Source of the DNA: a virus
Taxonomy: Duplodnaviria; Heunggongvirae; Uroviricota; Caudoviricetes
Length of the DNA stretch: 31,107 nucleotides
IMG/VR virus record: IMGVR_UViG_2713896798_000014
Strand: one strand, 5' to 3'
Part shown: piece by piece, positions 1,029 to 17,772 of the stretch
Layout of the letters: the number at the start of each line of letters is the position of its first letter
Position numbering within the stretch: position 1 is the stretch's first letter
Program-made: the position numbers and the translations under genes
Notes under the pieces: generated by a model
The model's database searches: none
What the model was told of the DNA's origin: nothing
Seen by the model: only the letters and a program-made list of their open reading frames with translations

Positions 1029-1202
1029 ATGGAAGATCAAAAAGCAACCAAGCCACAGGTTAAGTTCGACACAATGAAAGCATTCGCAGGTATGGGTGCT
1101 GCTGTTGAAGTTCTGATGAAGGCTGCTCCTAATGCGTTCACTCACGCTACTGTCTCTGGTAAAGAGCAGCAGGGTAAGCTTCGTCGTCGCAAAGCAGCAT
1201 GA
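1029..1202 (+). CDS. small hypothetical protein (57 aa)
   Basis: ATG at 1029 preceded by GGAG (1019-1022) with 6-nt spacer; ends just before a strong terminator; below the ORF-track length cutoff. Confidence 0.35.
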   Translation: MEDQKATKPQVKFDTMKAFAGMGAAVEVLMKAAPNAFTHATVSGKEQQGKLRRRKAA

Positions 1203-2140: not shown

Positions 2141-3039
2141 CACTTCACCTCCTGCGGCGGTTCCGGTAGCGGCATCCAGTGAGTTGCTTGCTCAATACCA
2201 TTACCCGGCTTAATCGTTGCATCTCCGCGCCGAAAAGTGCTTCCGGTATAGCGTGCGGAGCATATTAGCGGTTCAACCAGAGAGCTATCGAAATTCACCG
2301 AAATGAGCACGTTCTGGCCCTTTTCCGGCATTCGCTCACTACAGCTTATCCAACCATCCGGAGTTACCGGAAGCGAGAACGGCAGCACATCTCTGTGAAC
2401 AAGTTTTTGCTGTGACAGGTTATCCAGAACTTTCTGTACTGCTGCATCACCGAATACACCAAGCGCATCTGCCATAACTCCTACAACCTGATAAGCCTCA
2501 GCGCATACCGTGGATAAACCATCCGGAATTACCGGAGAGTTGCCATTTATATCGAAGTTTGGCTCTGCGTCCTGAACCAGGAGGATGTAACCATTCTTGG
2601 CAGTATCAAGTTCTAACGCCTCGGTGACGGTGCCGAAATAGCGATTACCTAAATCAGCATCACAAGTGCTTACATCAATGGAAACTTCCATGCCTTCGAT
2701 TAATTCTGGCAAGTTGTAAGTTTGGCTTACAGGTTGGCTACCCTGAAGCATGGAGGCGCGGTGACACCAGATAATCCAGCCAAGCGCCATATCCCATGCC
2801 ATGTATTCTCTATCGCCATTTTTTGCCCTACGGCGATCTACAGATTCCCCGAAACGCTTCTCCATAAATAATTCATAGGCTGCTCGTTCATCCGATACTG
2901 CTGCCAGTGATGCCAGTGCAATTTTTAATGCGGTAAGCATGTTGTTTTGATCTTCATCGAGTCCGAACGGTATTTCATCCCGTGCTGACTCAATGCTGGT
3001 AATCGTGTTCTGTAACCATTCTTTGGTAAGAGTATTCAT
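2140..3039 (-). CDS. Ead/Ea22-like phage protein with C-terminal DUF551-like region
   Basis: N-terminus MNTLTKEWLQNTITSIE shared with the neighbouring ORF (3235-3702); C-terminal W...MPLPEPP pattern. Confidence 0.55.
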   Translation of the reverse strand: MNTLTKEWLQNTITSIESARDEIPFGLDEDQNNMLTALKIALASLAAVSDERAAYELFMEKRFGESVDRRRAKNGDREYMAWDMALGWIIWCHRASMLQGSQPVSQTYNLPELIEGMEVSIDVSTCDADLGNRYFGTVTEALELDTAKNGYILLVQDAEPNFDINGNSPVIPDGLSTVCAEAYQVVGVMADALGVFGDAAVQKVLDNLSQQKLVHRDVLPFSLPVTPDGWISCSERMPEKGQNVLISVNFDSSLVEPLICSARYTGSTFRRGDATIKPGNGIEQATHWMPLPEPPQEVK

Positions 3040-3041
3040 AA

Positions 3042-3233
3042 CTATTTCACCTTAATCTCAACATTTCGCAGCTTTAGCTCTACTGGCAAGTCTGACTTTC
3101 CTGTTAATGCTAATGCGAGATTTTCAGGAGTAATGAGAGCTGTTATTGTTTTCCCCATCGCCAGACGAATAATCATTCGTATCTCGCGATCGTCACATGC
3201 TCCCGGTCGAACAATTGATATTTGTCCGTTCAT
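3042..3233 (-). CDS. hypothetical small phage protein
   Basis: Start placed at ATG 3233 (AGGAGA 5 nt upstream) rather than track start 3254; no family recognised. Confidence 0.45.
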   Translation of the reverse strand: MNGQISIVRPGACDDREIRMIIRLAMGKTITALITPENLALALTGKSDLPVELKLRNVEIKVK

Positions 3234-3234
3234 C

Positions 3235-3702
3235 TCACTCTCCTTTGATGCCAATGTTTACAGCCTGACAAGCCTCTTTGAGCACCCAGTCAACAGCGTC
3301 TTTCCATGCTCCGGTTTCGACTGGCGGATTTTCACTCTTAACCTGTTCATAGAAGCGCACCGCTTTAATCAATCCTTCGGGTGTCAGTGGCACAGGCTGG
3401 GCCGTGAATAACGCCTGAATTTCATAGTTCGGCCTGTCGTTGCAATCCTCTTTTGTCGGTACATATTTCCAGTCACCAACCCACGGCTTCTCCTGAAAGT
3501 TCGTAACGCCTTTTCTCACGTAGCGATATCGCCATGTCACCGGTTCGGCTTCCAGCGATGCCAGCGCGACTTTAAATGCGGTAAGTACGTTTTTAACCAC
3601 ATCGATTTTGAATACTATTTCATCACATACAAACGATTTATCGTCTACTACCGTTTCAATTCCGGTAATCGTGTTTTGTAGCCATTTGGTTAATTCAGCC
3701 AT
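3235..3702 (-). CDS. Ead/Ea22-like phage protein
   Basis: N-terminus MAELTKWLQNTITGIE paralogous to the 2140-3039 gene; GC hairpin (3712-3728) immediately 5' of start on the coding strand. Confidence 0.55.
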   Translation of the reverse strand: MAELTKWLQNTITGIETVVDDKSFVCDEIVFKIDVVKNVLTAFKVALASLEAEPVTWRYRYVRKGVTNFQEKPWVGDWKYVPTKEDCNDRPNYEIQALFTAQPVPLTPEGLIKAVRFYEQVKSENPPVETGAWKDAVDWVLKEACQAVNIGIKGE

Positions 3703-3837
3703 TTTTCATTACCGCCCTTTCGGGCGGTCTCCTGATGTTCTGAGGGTGCAGGAATCCCTCCGGTTAAGGATTAAATTTTATTTACAGAACTGAATTTAAT
3801 TATTCAGATATACGTATCTGTAACCTTACGAACCTAC

Positions 3838-5286: not shown

Positions 5287-6111
5287 TCAGGCGGTGAAAG
5301 TACCAATAAAGGTTTCTACTTTGCTGTCCTTGAATTTCTCAACAAGCAGATCACGAAATTCGTTAGCCATTTCTTCCTGGACTGCTTCCAGCTGAATAAT
5401 GCGCAGAACCAGTACAGGACGATCGCCAGTGATAATGCTGAGGCGTAATTTAAACGGACGTTCTTTCAGGCCTTCAAACGGAACGCATTTAAATTCAAAT
5501 GCCACTGGCATAATGTCTTTGGTCTTCGCTTCGACAGACTCCATCAGGGAGCGTTTGCCGCTGAAGTCATTATCTTCAAAATCAGCGGTCTGGTTTGCTT
5601 CAATCGTGATTTTACGGACTGCCGCAGCCGCTTTTGTTGCCTGAATGGTGTCACCATTAGCATCAAAGCCTACAAGGTAGTCGGCCCAGTCTTCGATCCA
5701 TTCTGCCAGTGACTTCTGGGAGTTACGCTCGCCATTAACAGACAACAGAGCAGAGAACGGTGCTGTCTTTTTCAGTTTGAGAGTGGCAGTGTTATCTGCG
5801 TGACCTGGTTCATCAATAGTACCCAGGTTAAGCACACTGACGGCACGCATATTATCGGCATCGATAAAGCAGCGGGTGCCTTCATCTGCAAGATCTTTAG
5901 AATAACGGGTAAAGTCATCGATGCTGGCAGTGGAAAGCGCACCACGGAAACGGAAGCGATTTAAATTAAATTTTTCCAGATCATGAATGCGGAAATTCTC
6001 AGGCAATGCCACAGCATCGGCACCAATCTTACTGATAATTTCATTAACACCCTGAGCAGAAATAAGGGCATGGATTTGATTAATTGCGGTTGCGTCTAAG
6101 TTCTGAGACAT
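5287..6111 (-). CDS. yfdQ: YfdQ-like protein (DUF2303 family)
   Basis: 274 aa, same length and gene-order position as K-12 CPS-53 YfdQ as recalled; GAGGA upstream. Confidence 0.65.
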
Positions 6112-6176
6112 AATAAGTCCTCACTATATAAAGATATTCAGTGATGAGATAAATAATCAGTTAATTAAGAACGATA

Positions 6177-6539
6177 TTAATGACCTGCTGCGCGTAGTTT
6201 TCCGTCAGGTTCACCGGCAAGAGTCAGTAATTGTCCCTGGTCTTCCTGCAGAATAGTCAGGCGACCACCGCGATTGACATACATCGGCGTTTCGGTGGTG
6301 TCTTCTTCGGAAATTTTCCCGCGGTTAGTCGGGCGAACATATGAGAGTTTGTGTTTGATTTTCACACGGTTCTCATCAAATGGTTCGATTTCCAGGTTGA
6401 GTGAGACCTTACCTTTGGTTTTCGTGTTCATCACACCGGAAGCGACTTCACTGAGAACTGCGCCGATTTTGGTTTCAAATACGCCGCCGTCCAGCTCCCC
6501 GATAAATGCCTGCACATCAGTACTGCGTTCGCTAGCCAT
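6177..6539 (-). CDS. hypothetical phage protein (YfdP-position)
   Basis: Start set at ATG 6539 (GAGGAG + 7 nt); the 62-codon in-frame upstream extension in the track is Cys/Arg/His-rich and overlaps an RNA hairpin. Confidence 0.55.
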   Translation of the reverse strand: MASERSTDVQAFIGELDGGVFETKIGAVLSEVASGVMNTKTKGKVSLNLEIEPFDENRVKIKHKLSYVRPTNRGKISEEDTTETPMYVNRGGRLTILQEDQGQLLTLAGEPDGKLRAAGH

Positions 6540-6587
6540 TTTGCTGCTCCTCATCATATCGACCCTGCAAGGTCGGTTGGTTTCTCC

Positions 6588-6721
6588 ACAAAACAGAGAA
6601 GAACACCTGCGGTGGCAGCCGCCCGGATGGATTGGGTTATGAGCCCGTCGTCCGGTGATGCTCTTCTCTGTTTTGTAAAAAGAGCGGTACCAGCCGGAAG
6701 CAAGTGTACAAACTGGTACCG
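6588..6721 (-). promoter_or_regulatory. nutL-like element: boxA-like CGCTCTTTTTA plus two long hairpins in the leftward leader
   Basis: Minus-strand CGCTCTTTTTACAA (6686-6673) matches the boxA consensus with one extra T; perfect 15-bp stem 6588-6602/6662-6676 (59-nt loop) and perfect 9-bp stem 6685-6693/6713-6721. Confidence 0.45.
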
Positions 6722-7153
6722 CCAAAGCAGTGGCTGTTGTGGTGATCGGTGATGATCTCCGGCTTGCGGTTATTTCAGACTCTCACGGGCATTTAATTGC
6801 CCCGCCGAACAGCTCTTTTCCGCAATAGCTGCAATGTCTTTCGCGCATCAGCCTGCGCATTCACCACAACGCTGAGAGCACTTAGCCAGTTACGGCACCA
6901 CACTTTGTCGCGGTTCCATAAATGCCCTCATAGTTGCACCCTGGTCTCTTCCCAGGCGTCAAACCGAATCGCCACGCTGGTTAGGCGTCTTATCAGCATC
7001 ATCATTGACTTGCACATTCCGGCTACCTGGTTTGTTTGCCCGAGCAAGGAGTGGATTGTCCCCTTTAACGTCCCCAGACCGCTAACGACGCATGTGCCAT
7101 ACGCCGTGTTACAACCAAATTTTGTTAGTACCTTGTTTGTTGGTCTGGAAAGA

Positions 7154-7206
7154 AAGATAAAATGAAGTTGCGTATTATGCAAGTATTTTTGTTGCGAGAT
7201 ATGCAA
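7154..7206 (-). promoter_or_regulatory. candidate pL with two operator dyads (OL-like)
   Basis: Two 15-bp dyads TTGCGTATTATGCAA (7168-7182) and TTGCGAGATATGCAA (7192-7206), 24 bp apart; minus-strand -35 TTGCAT (7182-7177) and -10 TATCTT (7159-7154) with 17-bp spacer. Confidence 0.45.
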
Positions 7207-7220
7207 TTTGATGGGTAATG

Positions 7221-7240
7221 AAAAGCCACCTTCGGGTGGC
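7221..7240 (-). terminator. rho-independent terminator downstream of the repressor gene
   Basis: GCCACC-TTCG-GGTGGC hairpin followed on the minus strand by TTTT; 20 nt past the cI stop. Confidence 0.6.
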
Positions 7241-7261
7241 TAATTGATGAGGAGGTAAGGG

Positions 7262-7954
7262 TTAATTGTGTCGCTTAAGGGTTTGTGACTGGCTGATTAA
7301 GACCTTTCCAAAGACCATAAACCGGTGTTCATTTTCGCTGGTAATTCCCCATTCACGATAAATCTGGTTATCAGAAATCACCAGTAGTTTGTCAGGTATC
7401 ATTTGCAGTCGTTTGACATAAATTTTATCATCAAAACCAAATACATAGATACCATCTCCATCAAACTGATTGATACTGACATCAACGAAGATGAGATCTC
7501 CTGGCTCAATGGTTGGACACATACTGTCCCCACGAACGTTGATAACTTTAATGTGATTTGCTGGCCGTCCGCCAAACATCGATACAGCATTATCAGTTCT
7601 GTATTCAATGGCATGAATCACATCAATGACATCTCCGCCCTGGATAAGGCCATTTCCCGCACTGGCACTGATATCCAGCATTTCAATACGGAATACATCC
7701 TTCACCTGCGCAATATCCTCACTAATACTGTTTTTACATACAGTATTACTTTTGAAGTCTGAGGTAAAGAGATCAGCAATATCAACACCTAAGCTCCTGG
7801 CAATATTACTCAGGGCTTGTTCAGTGAATTGTTTCTGCTTACCTGTTTCGAGGCGCGAGATATTCGCCGCATCCACTCCTATTGCTTCAGCGAGATCGGC
7901 GATTTTCATGTTCTTCGCCTGGCGAAGTTGTCTGACTCGATTTCCTATGTTCAT
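7262..7954 (-). CDS. cI: CI-type prophage repressor (HTH + LexA-like S24 peptidase domain)
   Basis: N-terminal HTH (RVRQLRQAKNMKIADLAEAIGVDAANISRLETG) and C-terminal S24 pattern with G-D-S-M (VRGDSMCPTIEPGDLIFVD...YVKRL). Confidence 0.85.
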   Translation of the reverse strand: MNIGNRVRQLRQAKNMKIADLAEAIGVDAANISRLETGKQKQFTEQALSNIARSLGVDIADLFTSDFKSNTVCKNSISEDIAQVKDVFRIEMLDISASAGNGLIQGGDVIDVIHAIEYRTDNAVSMFGGRPANHIKVINVRGDSMCPTIEPGDLIFVDVSINQFDGDGIYVFGFDDKIYVKRLQMIPDKLLVISDNQIYREWGITSENEHRFMVFGKVLISQSQTLKRHN

Positions 7955-7974
7955 GCGTTTATTACATTTCTTTA

Positions 7975-8037
7975 TTGCGCGTTAAGCAAATCAACTTGCG
8001 CAAAATATTTGCGTGAAATAATATGCTCATCACGCAA
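7975..8037. promoter_or_regulatory. OR-like operator cluster and divergent promoters between cI and cro
   Basis: Three dyad elements at 24-bp spacing: TTGCGCGTTAAGCAA (7975-7989), CGCAAAATATTTGCG (7999-8013), ATGCTCATCACGCAA (8023-8037); candidate rightward promoter -35 TTGCGC (7996-8001), -10 TAATAT (8019-8024). Confidence 0.45.
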
Positions 8038-8051
8038 TATGTGGAGGTTAT

Positions 8052-8312
8052 ATGCAATCACCATTACGGAATGTGCGTAAGGCGCACGGATTTACTTTGC
8101 AGCATGTTGCTGCGGGCGTTCAGGTCAATCCAGCGACGCTGAGTCGTATTGAAAGACTGGAACAAATTCCATCTATCGAGCTTGCAGAACGTCTGGCCAA
8201 TTTTTTTAAGGGAGAAATCAGCGAAATGCAGATTCTCTATCCTGCACGCTTTCAATCTAGTCAAAACCGGAATGAGTTAAAACCACAGGAACAGGAGGTA
8301 AGCCGTGGGTAA
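8052..8312 (+). CDS. cro: Cro-like HTH regulator
   Basis: 86 aa, divergent from cI; HTH segment GFTLQHVAAGVQVNPATLSRIER; GGAGG upstream. Confidence 0.7.
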   Translation: MQSPLRNVRKAHGFTLQHVAAGVQVNPATLSRIERLEQIPSIELAERLANFFKGEISEMQILYPARFQSSQNRNELKPQEQEVSRG

Positions 8313-8856
8313 GCATCACTGGAAAGTGGAAAAACAGCCTGAGTGGTACGTGAAAGCTGTCAGAAAAACTATCGCGGCGTTGCCGGGGGGTTACGCTGAA
8401 GCTGCTGAGTGGCTGGATGTAACAGAGAACGCTTTATTCAACCGCCTTCGTGCCGATGGCGATCAGTTTTTTCCGTTGGGATGGGCAATGGTTTTACAGC
8501 GTGCGGCTGGTACTCACCACATTGCGGATGCTGTCGCACAGTCTGCTGGTGGGGTGTTTGTATCACTTCCAGAAATTGAGGAAGTAGAGAACGCCGATAT
8601 AAACCAGCGCCTGCTGGAAGTCATCGAACAGATCGGGAGTTACTCAAAGCAGATTCGTTCGGCAATCGAAGATGGGGTAGTGGAGCCACACGAGCAGACA
8701 GCAATTAATGATGAGTTGTATCTGTCAATTTCGAAGCTCCAGGAGCATGCAGCACTGGTCTACAAAATCTTCTGCGCTCCAGAAAAGAGTAACGCCCGCG
8801 AGTGTGCAGCTCCGGGCGTCGTGGCGTTTTGTGTCTGTGGAGAAACTAACGCATGA
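8305..8856 (+). CDS. CII-like phage regulatory protein (family uncertain)
   Basis: GTG start with AGGAGG 6 nt upstream; position after cro; motif ...NRLRADGDQFFPLGWAMVLQRAAGTHHIADAVAQSAGGVFVSLP resembles enterobacterial CII-like regulators as recalled. Confidence 0.45.
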   Translation: MGKHHWKVEKQPEWYVKAVRKTIAALPGGYAEAAEWLDVTENALFNRLRADGDQFFPLGWAMVLQRAAGTHHIADAVAQSAGGVFVSLPEIEEVENADINQRLLEVIEQIGSYSKQIRSAIEDGVVEPHEQTAINDELYLSISKLQEHAALVYKIFCAPEKSNARECAAPGVVAFCVCGETNA

Positions 8857-9455
8857 ACAGTTTAACGGCAAATAACCGTTTGTCGCAACAGCTGGTGGTC
8901 AGTGTCGCTGCACACCTGTTGTTACGGCATGAATGCAGATTACCAAATCACCTGGCTGTAAGTAACCACAGAGAACTTTACCTGACTGTGGGGGGCGAGT
9001 TGTGCAGGAACTTAACCGCTGGTTTCGTGACGGAAGAGGACTTTATGTTCATGTTATTCGTTGGGAGCCAGAAACACAGCGCGTTATCTATCTTCGCAAA
9101 GACTACCCGCATGAGTGCTTTAGTCCTTTGTGGAAATTCAGGCGTGATTTTGTTGAGTGTGAAGGACCACCAGCATATTGACTCTGCAATTCCGGGACGT
9201 TACACTGTTCAGGCACCTTATAAAGCGGGTGCCGGGATTGGCGTCCTGAAATTGTCAACGGCGATGTATGACGCGCCAGCGTCTTTTTTATCGTCCGCAT
9301 TTGCTCACATCCAGATTATGGTGGGCTGGGCGGGGGCACCGAAAGGTGCGCCGGTCTCCGTTGACGCCGGTTACGCCAACCCCGTCCAGTTCACCACCAG
9401 TGAAATTGGCGTTTCCGGTGGTGGAAGTTTTTCACTGTCAACGGAGGCTGCCATC
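8853..9455 (+). other. ambiguous coding segment (two competing frames, G6 tract at junction)
   Basis: Frame of 8853 stays open into the Rha gene but reads as low-complexity; a protein-like 59-codon ORF lies in the -1 frame (9002-9181, ...NRWFRDGRGLYVHVIRWEPETQRVIYLRKDYPHECF...); G6 run at 8990-8995 where the frames meet. Confidence 0.3.
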
Positions 9456-10013
9456 ATGGCTACGATCCAAGCCCTCACTCAACCTGAAATCACCATTGAC
9501 AACGGCCAGGCCGTTACCACTTCTTTGGCTGTTGCCAACTTCTTCTCCAAGCGTCACGACGATGTGCTGAAAAAGATCCGCACTCTGGATTGTTCCCCTG
9601 AGTTTTGTGCCCGCAATTTTGCGGAGACATCGATTTCGGTAAATCAACCGAACGGTGGTACACGCAAGCTCCCTTGCTATCAAATCACACGAGACGGTTT
9701 TGCGTTTCTTGCTATGGGTTTCACGGGTAAACGTGCTGCCCGGTTCAAAGAGGCATACATCAATGCCTTTAACCAGATGGAAAAACTGCTTTCAAAGCCA
9801 TCCACGCTGAGCGATGCCGCAGATAACGCCAGCGTGCTTTACTCCCACCTGTCGGTAATCCACAAGGTCTGGCTGCAGCAGCTTTATCCTATGTTGGCAA
9901 AAGCTGAATCTCCGCTGGCTGTTAGCTTATATGATTATATTAATGATGCTTCGGCGCTGGCCTGCCTCATAAATTTGTCGCTGAACCCTTCAGAGGTAAG
10001 GGGGCGCAAATGA
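9456..10013 (+). CDS. Rha-family phage regulatory protein
   Basis: N-terminus MATIQALTQPEITIDNGQAVTTSLAVANFFSKRHDDVLKKIRTL matches Rha-domain pattern; GGAGG 7 nt upstream of ATG 9456; track reports this as the C-terminus of a 386-aa ORF. Confidence 0.65.
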   Translation: MATIQALTQPEITIDNGQAVTTSLAVANFFSKRHDDVLKKIRTLDCSPEFCARNFAETSISVNQPNGGTRKLPCYQITRDGFAFLAMGFTGKRAARFKEAYINAFNQMEKLLSKPSTLSDAADNASVLYSHLSVIHKVWLQQLYPMLAKAESPLAVSLYDYINDASALACLINLSLNPSEVRGRK

Positions 10014-16443: not shown

Positions 16444-16519
16444 GGCCCTTTAGCTCAGTGGTGAGAGCGAGCGACTCATAATCGCCAGGTCGCTGGTTCA
16501 AATCCAGCAAGGGCCACCA
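16444..16519 (+). tRNA. tRNA with CAU anticodon (Ile2/Met-type, ileZ-like)
   Basis: 76 nt; acceptor stem GGCCCTT/AAGGGCC, anticodon loop CTCATAA, T-loop GGTTCAAATCC, 3' CCA. Confidence 0.8.
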
Positions 16520-16528
16520 TATTACATA

Positions 16529-16605
16529 CCGCTATTAGCTCATCGGGACAGAGCGCCAGCCTTCGAAGCTGGCTGCGCGGGGTTCAAGTCCCCGATGGCG
16601 GTCCA
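16529..16605 (+). tRNA. tRNA-Arg (anticodon UCG)
   Basis: 77 nt; anticodon stem CCAGC/GCTGG with loop CTTCGAA; T-loop GGTTCAAGTCC; 3' CCA. Confidence 0.8.
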
Positions 16606-16618
16606 TTATCAGCATCAT

Positions 16619-16695
16619 GCGTTGTTAGCTCAGTCGGACAGAGCAATTGCCTTCTAAGCAATCGGTCAGTGGTTAGACTCCACTACAACGCGCCA
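16619..16695 (+). tRNA. tRNA-Arg (anticodon UCU)
   Basis: 77 nt; anticodon stem ATTGC/GCAAT with loop CTTCTAA; 3' CCA. Confidence 0.8.
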
Positions 16696-16708
16696 CACTT
16701 ATTTTCCA

Positions 16709-16734
16709 GGCTCGCTTCGGCGGGCCTTTTTTGT
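16709..16734 (+). terminator. rho-independent terminator after the tRNA cluster
   Basis: GGCTCGC-TTCG-GCGGGCC hairpin followed by TTTTTTGT. Confidence 0.65.
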
Positions 16735-16864
16735 ATCTGCGCCACGCCCGGCGCATATCAACCACAGAGCCTTTCGGGGGTGAGCTTACGGAGTGGTCAG
16801 TGTGACTTTCTCTGTGGGCAGATCGCTCCCGGGCGTTGGCTCACCCACCCAAAGGAACGTCACG

Positions 16865-17460: not shown

Positions 17461-17772
17461 TTTTTTTATTTGCTGTTTATTAAAAACACTTCTGCATGGT
17501 GAATCCCCCTGTGCGGAGGGGCGATCAGCAACCAGGTATATGGGATAATCGCGGATTCAGGTGCTGATACTGAATTCACCGGGAGGCACCCGGCACCATG
17601 CTTTGCCACAAAAGTGTTGTTTCTGTTTTTCTCAAACTATCATCATTATCCCTTTATTTCCGGCTGCGCATGGCGTGGCTTTTTTTACGACCAGCCACTG
17701 GCAGATGGCCATCCTGTAATTTGATTCCGGTTCCGGCTTTTTAACTCTGTTCCTGTACACGGGAGAAATTCG

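Follow-up and report, generated by a model that had tools for sequence, protein, structure and literature searches.

How does a lambdoid phage that lacks an N gene express its early leftward operon, and what part does the long leader of that operon play? The question is raised by positions 6588-6721 of a stretch of viral DNA, IMG/VR record IMGVR_UViG_2713896798_000014, whose whole length of 31,107 nucleotides (nt) was analysed and is called the window here. By sequence similarity the window is a lambdoid Escherichia coli prophage of the mEp460/SfV/cdtI type: positions 6400-7400 show 100% identity with E. coli Z1323HEC0108 and 97.5% identity with phage mEp460 in a BLAST search, and the SfII/SfIV/SfV lineage has been reported to be without N, cII and cIII (PMC3851460). 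An earlier note on this DNA placed a nutL-like boxA, accompanied by long perfect hairpins, in the leader downstream of a candidate leftward promoter (pL), and named a put-like RNA as an alternative. Our comparisons point to a different answer: the site would be the promoter-distal part of a folded non-coding leader, combining an attenuator with a processed, tRNA-like leader RNA, and in this assignment of function we place a little more confidence than doubt.

A folded RNA directly ahead of the first leftward gene

The structures described in the earlier note are all present on the minus strand, to which the leader coordinates below refer. The boxA-like string CGCTCTTTTTACAA lies at 6686-6673. 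The perfect 15-bp stem (6676-6662 with 6602-6588, 59-nt loop) extends to a 20-bp helix (6676-6657/6607-6588), and the preceding stem, described as 9 bp long, consists of 10 Watson-Crick pairs and one G-U pair (6723-6713/6693-6683) around a 19-nt loop. The RNA folding that had been proposed as a check gives -93.4 kcal/mol for a 211-nt stretch, compared with -62.0 +/- 4.4 kcal/mol for its dinucleotide shuffles (z = -7.1), and none of 200 shuffles folds as well.

The 20-bp helix closes an RNA of ~105 nt with a three-way junction, hereafter M3 (6579-6683); across the 31-kb window, no other inverted repeat within 150 nt is as long as that of M3. Arm A of the junction (6655-6623) carries the nearly invariant GACGGGCUCAUAACCCAAUCCA at 6649-6628, with a tRNA-fMet-like stem-loop at 6647-6634, and the second arm, arm B (6622-6609), is variable, spanning a 4-bp hairpin up to a 40-nt insert among the variants. 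Most family members show one mid-helix mismatch in the closing helix. Directly 3' of this helix, GGAGAA (6582-6587) is found in nearly all variants of class A, the form that belongs to an mRNA leader; GGGGAA replaces it once, and some genome matches have GGAGAU. Hairpin 3 (6560-6575, CGACCU-UGCA-GGGUCG) separates M3 from the ribosome-binding site of yfdP, the first leftward gene, and recurs in nearly all variants whatever gene follows, with 17 different stems and the loops UGCA, GGCA or GUGCAGA.

M3 was defined by alignment, pair counts and a covariance model (R1). The structure used for the test has 32 pairs, namely the 20-pair closing helix, 5+3 pairs in arm A and 4 pairs in arm B, and was scored on 28 distinct variants. 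Pairing is found in 95.2% of the cells, compared with 36.9-50.9% when the partners are slid by 1-3 columns. Compensatory changes, with both sides altered, occur at ten pairs (46 cells), and the covariation score of 0.200 exceeds that of shuffled alignments (0.109 +/- 0.006), none of 500 shuffles being as high. Moreover, the G-U pairs assign M3 to the leftward transcript, and R1 gives 93-124 bits on the sense strand across the family versus 28-49 bits on the antisense strand; in the window the minus strand scores 119.1 bits and the plus strand 45.6 bits, and a search with filters off finds one copy. The existence of M3 as a conserved, strand-specific, non-coding three-way-junction RNA is thus well supported by comparative evidence.

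It is hardly credible that the interval is protein-coding instead, whether as an N-terminal extension of yfdP (frame open from TTG at 6725) or as small open reading frames (ORFs). The yfdP frame is indeed open for 62 codons upstream and is kept open in close homologues, the summed substitutions are biased to the third codon position (89 vs 33 and 22), and ORFs on either strand of M3 match PHROG families without an assigned function; the upstream substitution counts, however, are non-independent events. The extension was rejected because stops occur in all three frames across M3 in 4 of the 28 variants and because the lengths of family members differ by 1, 2, 4, 23 and 26 nt. Furthermore, yfdP has a strong Shine-Dalgarno sequence of its own (GAGGAG at 6552-6547, 7 nt ahead of ATG 6539), the helices carry compensatory changes, and the Prokaryotic Genome Annotation Pipeline (PGAP) annotates no gene between the repressor and yfdP. 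The view that no N-like gene stands in this interval is upheld by the same blank annotation and by the small leader ORFs, which show no N-like Pfam or PHROG match.

Two protein families, phrog_3651 and phrog_33599, match ORFs across M3 at 6612-6752 (plus strand) and 6554-6703 (minus strand); in mEp460, gene 036 runs opposite M3 and the hairpin before it, and the leader further upstream is overlapped by gene 037. Both PHROG families were probably built from ORF calls over a conserved RNA.

Rfam was searched with the whole window at the gathering threshold and with 6100-8400 at E <= 10, and returned no family for the site and one chance ar7 match. M3 is therefore proposed as a candidate new RNA family, absent from Rfam 15. 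We found no account of it in the literature on yfdP, on the small RNAs (sRNAs) of ST64B, on STnc100, on RprA in prophages or on antitermination in mEp460 and SfV.

Each phage has one M3, which always separates the repressor gene from the first gene of the leftward operon, irrespective of what that gene is. At 100 of 110 M3 loci a repressor homologue is encoded upstream in the same orientation, the remaining ten being mostly short of upstream sequence. The gene downstream is yfdP at 66 of these loci, and no yfdP was detected at the other 44. M3 thus travels with the promoter and immunity region and is not tied to any one gene. When one genome per species was examined, the true matches were in the Enterobacterales, from Escherichia, Citrobacter, Enterobacter, Kosakonia, Mixta, Leclercia, Trabulsiella, Buttiauxella, Phytobacter, Pseudescherichia, Pseudocitrobacter and Yersinia, and Klebsiella and Raoultella carry a second form, class B. 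One further match is in a contig labelled Chryseobacterium, a doubtful label because the match is phiNP-like. A wide phylogenetic spread was considered and rejected: most non-enterobacterial pattern matches are chance or coding, and their number is about that of their own chance expectation. The only such match that fits the whole M3 model, weakly (36.6 bits), lies in an Acidobacteriaceae metagenome-assembled genome (PMHC01000083.1, 2543-2635, minus strand); it has an identical arm-A core (ACGGGCUCAUAACCCAAUCC) with entirely different stems and has a lysin-like gene as its neighbour. Phages well beyond the Enterobacterales may therefore carry the arm-A motif.

Hairpin 1, the boxA-like string and the antitermination readings

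The stem that precedes M3, hairpin 1 (6683-6723), has 11 pairs and a 19-nt loop, with a predicted free energy of -20.7 kcal/mol, and it is probably the stem of an intrinsic terminator. In the window it is followed by UCUUUUU, so that a stable G+C-rich stem and a U-tract stand together. We searched homologues by BLAST and an exact-pattern scan and obtained 59 distinct variants in viral contigs and phages, among them SfV, SfII, SfIV, ST64B, phiNP, LLS, Kp4866-6, Stx2c and Stx2a phages and many IMG/VR contigs. Hairpin 1 is built from at least eight different stem sequences (GGCGGUACCAG, GUCGGCGUC, GGCGGUUAUCCA, UGCCCA, GCGGCGCCAG, GCGGCAUC, CUGGCGG and GGGGCGGUAACA are examples) and is always re-formed, with predicted free energies of -12 to -31 kcal/mol. 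The gap between the end of the stem and the T-run is 0-2 nt across the homologues. A run of 5-7 T follows hairpin 1 in 57 of the 59 variants and the boxA core is present in only 15, the other variants having CGCCC, CGTCC, CGACC, GCACC or CCGCA before the T-run. The loops in relatives range from 5 nt up to 40 structured nt, compared with 3-8 nt in a typical terminator. Because the stem re-forms with different sequences and the T-run is kept, the CGC of the supposed boxA is part of a stem and its TCTTTTT is a U-tract. The whole string (6673-6686) is thus made up of the last 4 nt of hairpin 1, the U-tract at 6683-6677 and the first 4 nt of the M3 closing helix, and hairpin 1 with its T-run probably has the anatomy of an intrinsic terminator.

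These observations make it very improbable that the site is a nutL-like boxA/boxB element for an N-like or host Nus-dependent antitermination system encoded elsewhere. It is true that CGCTCTTTTTACAA resembles the rrn and lambdoid boxA, and that its place in an untranslated leader, with a long helix of the processing type behind it, recalls rrn leaders. The match, however, fits the 13-nt consensus only with one additional T, and the core is no commoner than chance: YGCTCTTW occurs twice in the window versus 4.06 times expected, and a search with YGCTCTTTAACAA allowing up to 3 mismatches gives 15 matches in the window versus 15.9 expected, the hairpin 1 site not being among them. The boxA CGC belongs to a covarying stem, and no boxB is present, the string running straight into the helix of the three-way junction. 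Hairpin 3, with the loops given above, has no GNRA-like pentaloop of the boxB type. A nutR counterpart is also missing: the plus strand of the pR operon is free of the boxA core, the 13-mer search yields no credible site in that operon, and no second M3 is found even with filters off. The site at 6588-6721 is thus not a nut site by sequence comparison, and the nut reading is largely refuted. Of what the earlier note had said about the leftward leader, the functional RNA structure and the lack of an N gene hold and the nutL assignment falls. The only other boxA-core match in the window, TGCTCTTTACCAG at 1156-1168 (minus strand), is situated at the distal end of the leftward operon and can be explained by chance.

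Two further folded modules lie between pL and hairpin 1. M1 (7072-7150) is a predicted three-way junction closed by UUCCAGACC/GGUCUGGGG, with a minimum free energy of -27.7 kcal/mol (z = -3.0), and a stretch of 79% identity is found in a P1-like plasmid directly after tRNA-Ile and upstream of dnaB (ban). M2 (6733-6872) is multi-branched, closed by GUUGUGGUGA/UCACCACAAC, and has an STnc100-like architecture; it shares with STnc100, as judged by eye, the closing stem GUUGYGGUG/CACCRCAAC and the layout of a GAAU hairpin. P1-like plasmids carry a copy of 94% identity after tRNA-Thr, and between the two copies a hairpin changes from GCGCA...UGCGC to GCACA...UGUGC, a compensatory change. An arginine-rich ORF of 24-36 aa in M2, with the sequence ...NAQADARKTLQLLRKRAVRRGN, is reminiscent of the arginine-rich motif of N; it was considered and rejected, being truncated in the paralogous P1-type copy and without a family match.

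The likeness of this part of the leader to known sRNAs is more evident in the relatives. The ST64B module at the M2 position scores 35.1 bits (E 1e-4) and the P1-type unit 37.8 bits against Rfam STnc100 (RF02076), both below the gathering threshold of 47 bits. In phage LLS, the segment before and including hairpin 1 (LLS 1370-1506) aligns with the 3' half of RprA at 40.8 bits, also below threshold, and the alignment spans the RprA seed AUUGCUGUGUGUAGUCUU and the terminator; the ST64B and phiNP leaders likewise carry this seed region directly before hairpin 1. From these alignments, the terminator hairpin 1 in relatives is seen to close an STnc100/RprA-like sRNA module within the leader, and the seed and terminator in LLS could be a phage mimic of the core sRNA RprA.

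The other antitermination reading takes M3 as a cis-acting, put-like RNA that stays with RNA polymerase and replaces N against Rho-dependent or intrinsic terminators. M3 is a conserved folded RNA in the pL leader of N-less phages, its linkage is to the promoter and immunity region and not to one downstream gene, and it is the only leader module common to all the immunity types examined. The reading is nevertheless quite unlikely. We built a put model (R2) from HK022 putL and putR together with UPF_BP1, phiEt88, CobraSix, HK639 and S9-5, which scores 97.3 bits on putL and 48.3 bits on putR. R2, run with filters off, has no match in the leaders of the window, ST64B, Kp4866-6, phiNP and LLS, and its best score in the window, 7.3 bits, lies elsewhere, so the put-like alternative of the earlier note gains nothing from the covariance-model search. 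The put features, CGAACGGC, CAGGAUGA and GGCAAU within two stem-loops of ~70 nt in total, are not those of M3, in which a 20-bp helix closes a three-way junction. The rightward operon has no partner copy, and M3 stands downstream of the only good terminator of the leader, the consensus scan showing no strong intrinsic terminator further down the leftward operon. Related units are moreover located inside the tRNA operons of P1 and of Klebsiella phages. A 9-mer common to M1 and putL (CAUGCGUCG) had looked promising and was dropped, as the put model gave no match.

The tRNA-like arm and the proposed processing of the leader

Arm A contains 14 nt (CGGGCUCAUAACCC) identical to the anticodon stem-loop of the E. 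coli initiator tRNA-Met gene, which is present in all 5426 E. coli genomes with a median of four copies. The segment GGG-CUCAUAA-CCC (6646-6634) pairs in 28 of 28 variants and presents a 7-nt loop with U33 and a purine at 37. The link to tRNA rests on three points: the match coincides with the conserved 7-nt loop, this is the most conserved part of M3, and relatives of M3 are found in tRNA operons.

Among these relatives, class B of the Klebsiella phages is shorter; arms A and B are kept, and the closing stem is reduced to 6-7 bp followed by (A/G)CCA. It is located 8-9 nt after a genuine tRNA, downstream of Q, scores 38-41 bits under R1, and is not called by ARAGORN, the mitochondrial mode included. 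An acceptor-like stem with NCCA is found only in this class; in the window, the 20-bp helix is followed by GUGGAGAA. In P1-type phage-plasmids an array stands after tRNA-Thr. It contains a long-helix unit enclosing a true T-arm (GGGTTCGAATCCC), and the array also includes the M2 copy mentioned above, two M3-like units (31.6 and 37.9 bits, loops GUCAUAU and UUCAUAU) and a terminal STnc100-like unit with a terminator. In phage P1 (NC_005856, 69502-70199) this stretch is annotated as the ORFs plp and upl, and 2920-3835 of the sequence L129 is likewise such an array. The plp and upl ORFs may be artefacts over structured RNAs, that is, a mis-annotation in a model phage.

The window has a tRNA cluster of its own after Q (16444-16820, plus strand), with a CAT-anticodon tRNA (probably Ile2-like), Arg-TCG and Arg-TCT and a terminator at 16708-16727; the calls of ARAGORN and of the Rfam tRNA model in the window all fall within 16444-16695. 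A long-range stem, CCACAGAG...CUCUGUGG, at ~16762-16820, past the terminator of the cluster, may be another long-helix unit.

It is possible, if doubtful, that M3 and class B act in trans as tRNA mimics, the anticodon arm decoying or binding a host or defence factor that recognises a CAU anticodon. For the partner, an anticodon nuclease such as VapC, a synthetase, a modification enzyme or an initiation factor could tentatively be considered; VapC toxins cleave the anticodon loop of tRNA-fMet. In support of such mimicry, UCAU stands in a G-C-closed 7-nt loop in every variant, including P1 (GUCAUAU, UUCAUAU) and ST64B (CUCAUUA), 14 nt are identical to tRNA-fMet, and class B combines an acceptor-like stem and NCCA with a place in tRNA arrays downstream of Q. 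Class A, however, forms part of an mRNA leader and does not end in CCA, chance could account for the 14-mer identity taken alone, and the fixed place just upstream of the first gene suggests a role in cis. In a more speculative vein, M3 and its P1 and Klebsiella relatives might constitute an undescribed family of tRNA mimics, serving as decoy or regulator, or else an RNA-only antiterminator that would explain the lack of N in phages of the SfV/ST64B/mEp460 type; we regard this suggestion, too, as tentative.

Under the reading that we prefer, an attenuator followed by a processed leader RNA, the following course of events can be envisaged. Transcripts from pL would partly stop at hairpin 1, the attenuator, and give a leader RNA of ~470 nt. 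Those reading through would fold M3, whose long duplex would be cut, most plausibly by RNase III. The cut would separate the leader from the early mRNA, with hairpin 3 left near the new 5' end, and a stable RNA about the size of a tRNA would be set free. For the relatives in phage tRNA operons that have NCCA and an acceptor-like stem, maturation in the manner of a tRNA would be expected instead.

Several observations weigh against this course. Termination at hairpin 1 and cutting of the helix are both steps that we infer from sequence. Hairpin 1 of the window was not called by the simple, consensus-based terminator scan, which missed it because of its 19-nt loop. The M3 of the window has no NCCA, D loop or T loop, and is recognised as a tRNA neither by ARAGORN nor by the Rfam tRNA model. 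Taken by itself, an identity of 14 nt with one tRNA or another is no great rarity in 31 kb of DNA, at ~0.015 per tRNA species by our own estimate. Within the window M3 has no complementary site of 10 nt or more, and the conserved arm has no complementary target there, its sole 9-mer match comparing with 5.7 expected (1 vs 5.7). Upstream, M2 of the window has no match to Rfam STnc100 at E <= 10, and the window has lost the RprA-like seed through a deletion of ~10 nt.

An early-left operon without N is shared by a large and medically relevant group of temperate phages, which includes Shigella serotype-converting phages, Salmonella ST64B, Stx2c- and cdtI-converting phages and many prophages of E. 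coli, Klebsiella and Enterobacter. For this operon a gate can now be located in a conserved terminator and, behind it, a conserved folded RNA that immediately precedes the first gene. The question of how the operon is expressed without N becomes testable, with the textbook nut and put solutions disfavoured. The tRNA-like arm, as possible mimicry, bears further on tRNA-targeting defence systems and on the counter-measures of phages.

Neighbouring features and known systems

The leader runs from an immunity region of lambdoid layout. The cI-like repressor gene (7262-7954, minus strand; ORF of 230 aa with a helix-turn-helix domain and an S24 peptidase domain) is named an XRE family regulator by PGAP and a prophage repressor in the mEp460 record, and it points in the same direction as the leftward operon. 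An intrinsic terminator, AGCCACCCGAAGGTGGCT followed by TTTTC, lies at 7224-7241 (minus strand), 3' of this gene. The candidate oL/pL (7154-7206, minus strand) contains two 15-bp operators of the form TTGC-N7-GCAA (7206-7192 and 7182-7168), and such repeats occupy the equivalent place in ST64B and phiNP. Read from the sequence, pL would have a -35 box TTGCAT (7182-7177), a spacer of 17 nt and a -10 box TATCTT (7159-7154), and transcription would start near 7146. Similarity to phages of other immunity types begins at ~7126 in BLAST comparisons. Counted from this putative start, the untranslated leader is ~600 nt long, and the 621-nt leader as a whole folds with z = -6.0.

The first leftward gene, yfdP (PGAP, 363 nt), occupies 6177-6552 on the minus strand with its Shine-Dalgarno sequence included, from ATG 6539-6537 to a stop at 6177. 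Substitutions in it are mostly at the third codon position (273 vs 53 and 36). A long-range helix occluding its start is present in the minimum free energy structure and was discarded, as it is not conserved in relatives.

Other structured RNAs of the window are on the plus strand. At 9213-9401, matches to Rfam isrK (62 bits) and to C4 antisense RNA (81 bits) adjoin each other; a promoter-like site (9178-9206) and a terminator (9270-9283) accompany them, and PGAP annotates the ORF that contains all four (8853-10013) as a Rha-family regulatory protein. The region looks like a c4/ant immunity module of the P1 type in the rightward operon, and the coding annotation may be too long. In the late region, STnc100 sRNA (17468-17645, 105 bits) follows TerB-family and DUF3927 genes, which are also found between the tRNAs of P1-like plasmids; its terminator (17662-17680) is followed by UUUUUUUACGA, a U-run plus AC as after hairpin 1. 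A full-length match to Rfam IS009 (27841-28039, 214 bits) lies in the structural-gene region.

Compared with known systems, the site shares with lambda nutL and nutR its place in a leftward early leader and the order of a boxA-like string followed by hairpins; it differs in that the string is unconserved and equals a terminator-like U-tract, and in having no boxB-type hairpin, N or second site. With HK022 put it shares a folded RNA in the early leader of an N-less lambdoid phage, where action in cis on transcription is possible, whereas M3 is a 105-nt three-way junction with a 20-bp helix, present in a single copy ~470 nt from the promoter and behind a terminator. The C4 RNA of P1/P7 and the CI RNA of P4 (RF01695, clan CL00128), which are processed by RNase P, resemble M3 in their U-rich 5' flank, in a long helix enclosing two hairpins and in being phage-encoded and embedded in an operon leader. 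M3, however, has no significant match to the C4 model, no complementary target sites and no CCA-like 3' tail; in the window the Rfam C4 model matches only its own locus (9314-9401), which in turn scores 8.3 bits under the M3 model.

Hairpin 1 and the module before it are laid out like the leader-derived sRNAs STnc100/PasD and StxS, the latter being a precedent for an early-terminated phage leader transcript (the pR' leader) that becomes a regulatory sRNA (PMC7547250). These sRNAs are sited in the late (pR') leader, in contrast to the module of the window in the pL leader; M3 lies outside their families, and M2 of the window is under any Rfam threshold. The likeness to initiator tRNA and to tRNA-like RNAs consists of the 14-nt stem-loop identity and of tRNA-sized relatives that carry an acceptor-like stem and NCCA beside tRNAs. 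The difference is that in the window M3 has a 20-bp helix in place of an acceptor stem, and no CCA, D loop or T loop. Comparable tRNA-like RNAs are the tRNA-like domain of tmRNA, YrlA and the stable RNAs in the tRNA clusters of T4. Finally, a helix of at least 20 bp formed from the flanks of a folded RNA, in an untranslated leader just upstream of a gene, would resemble the helices processed by RNase III, which are known from the stems of rrn operons, the lambda N leader and the inter-genic sites of T7.

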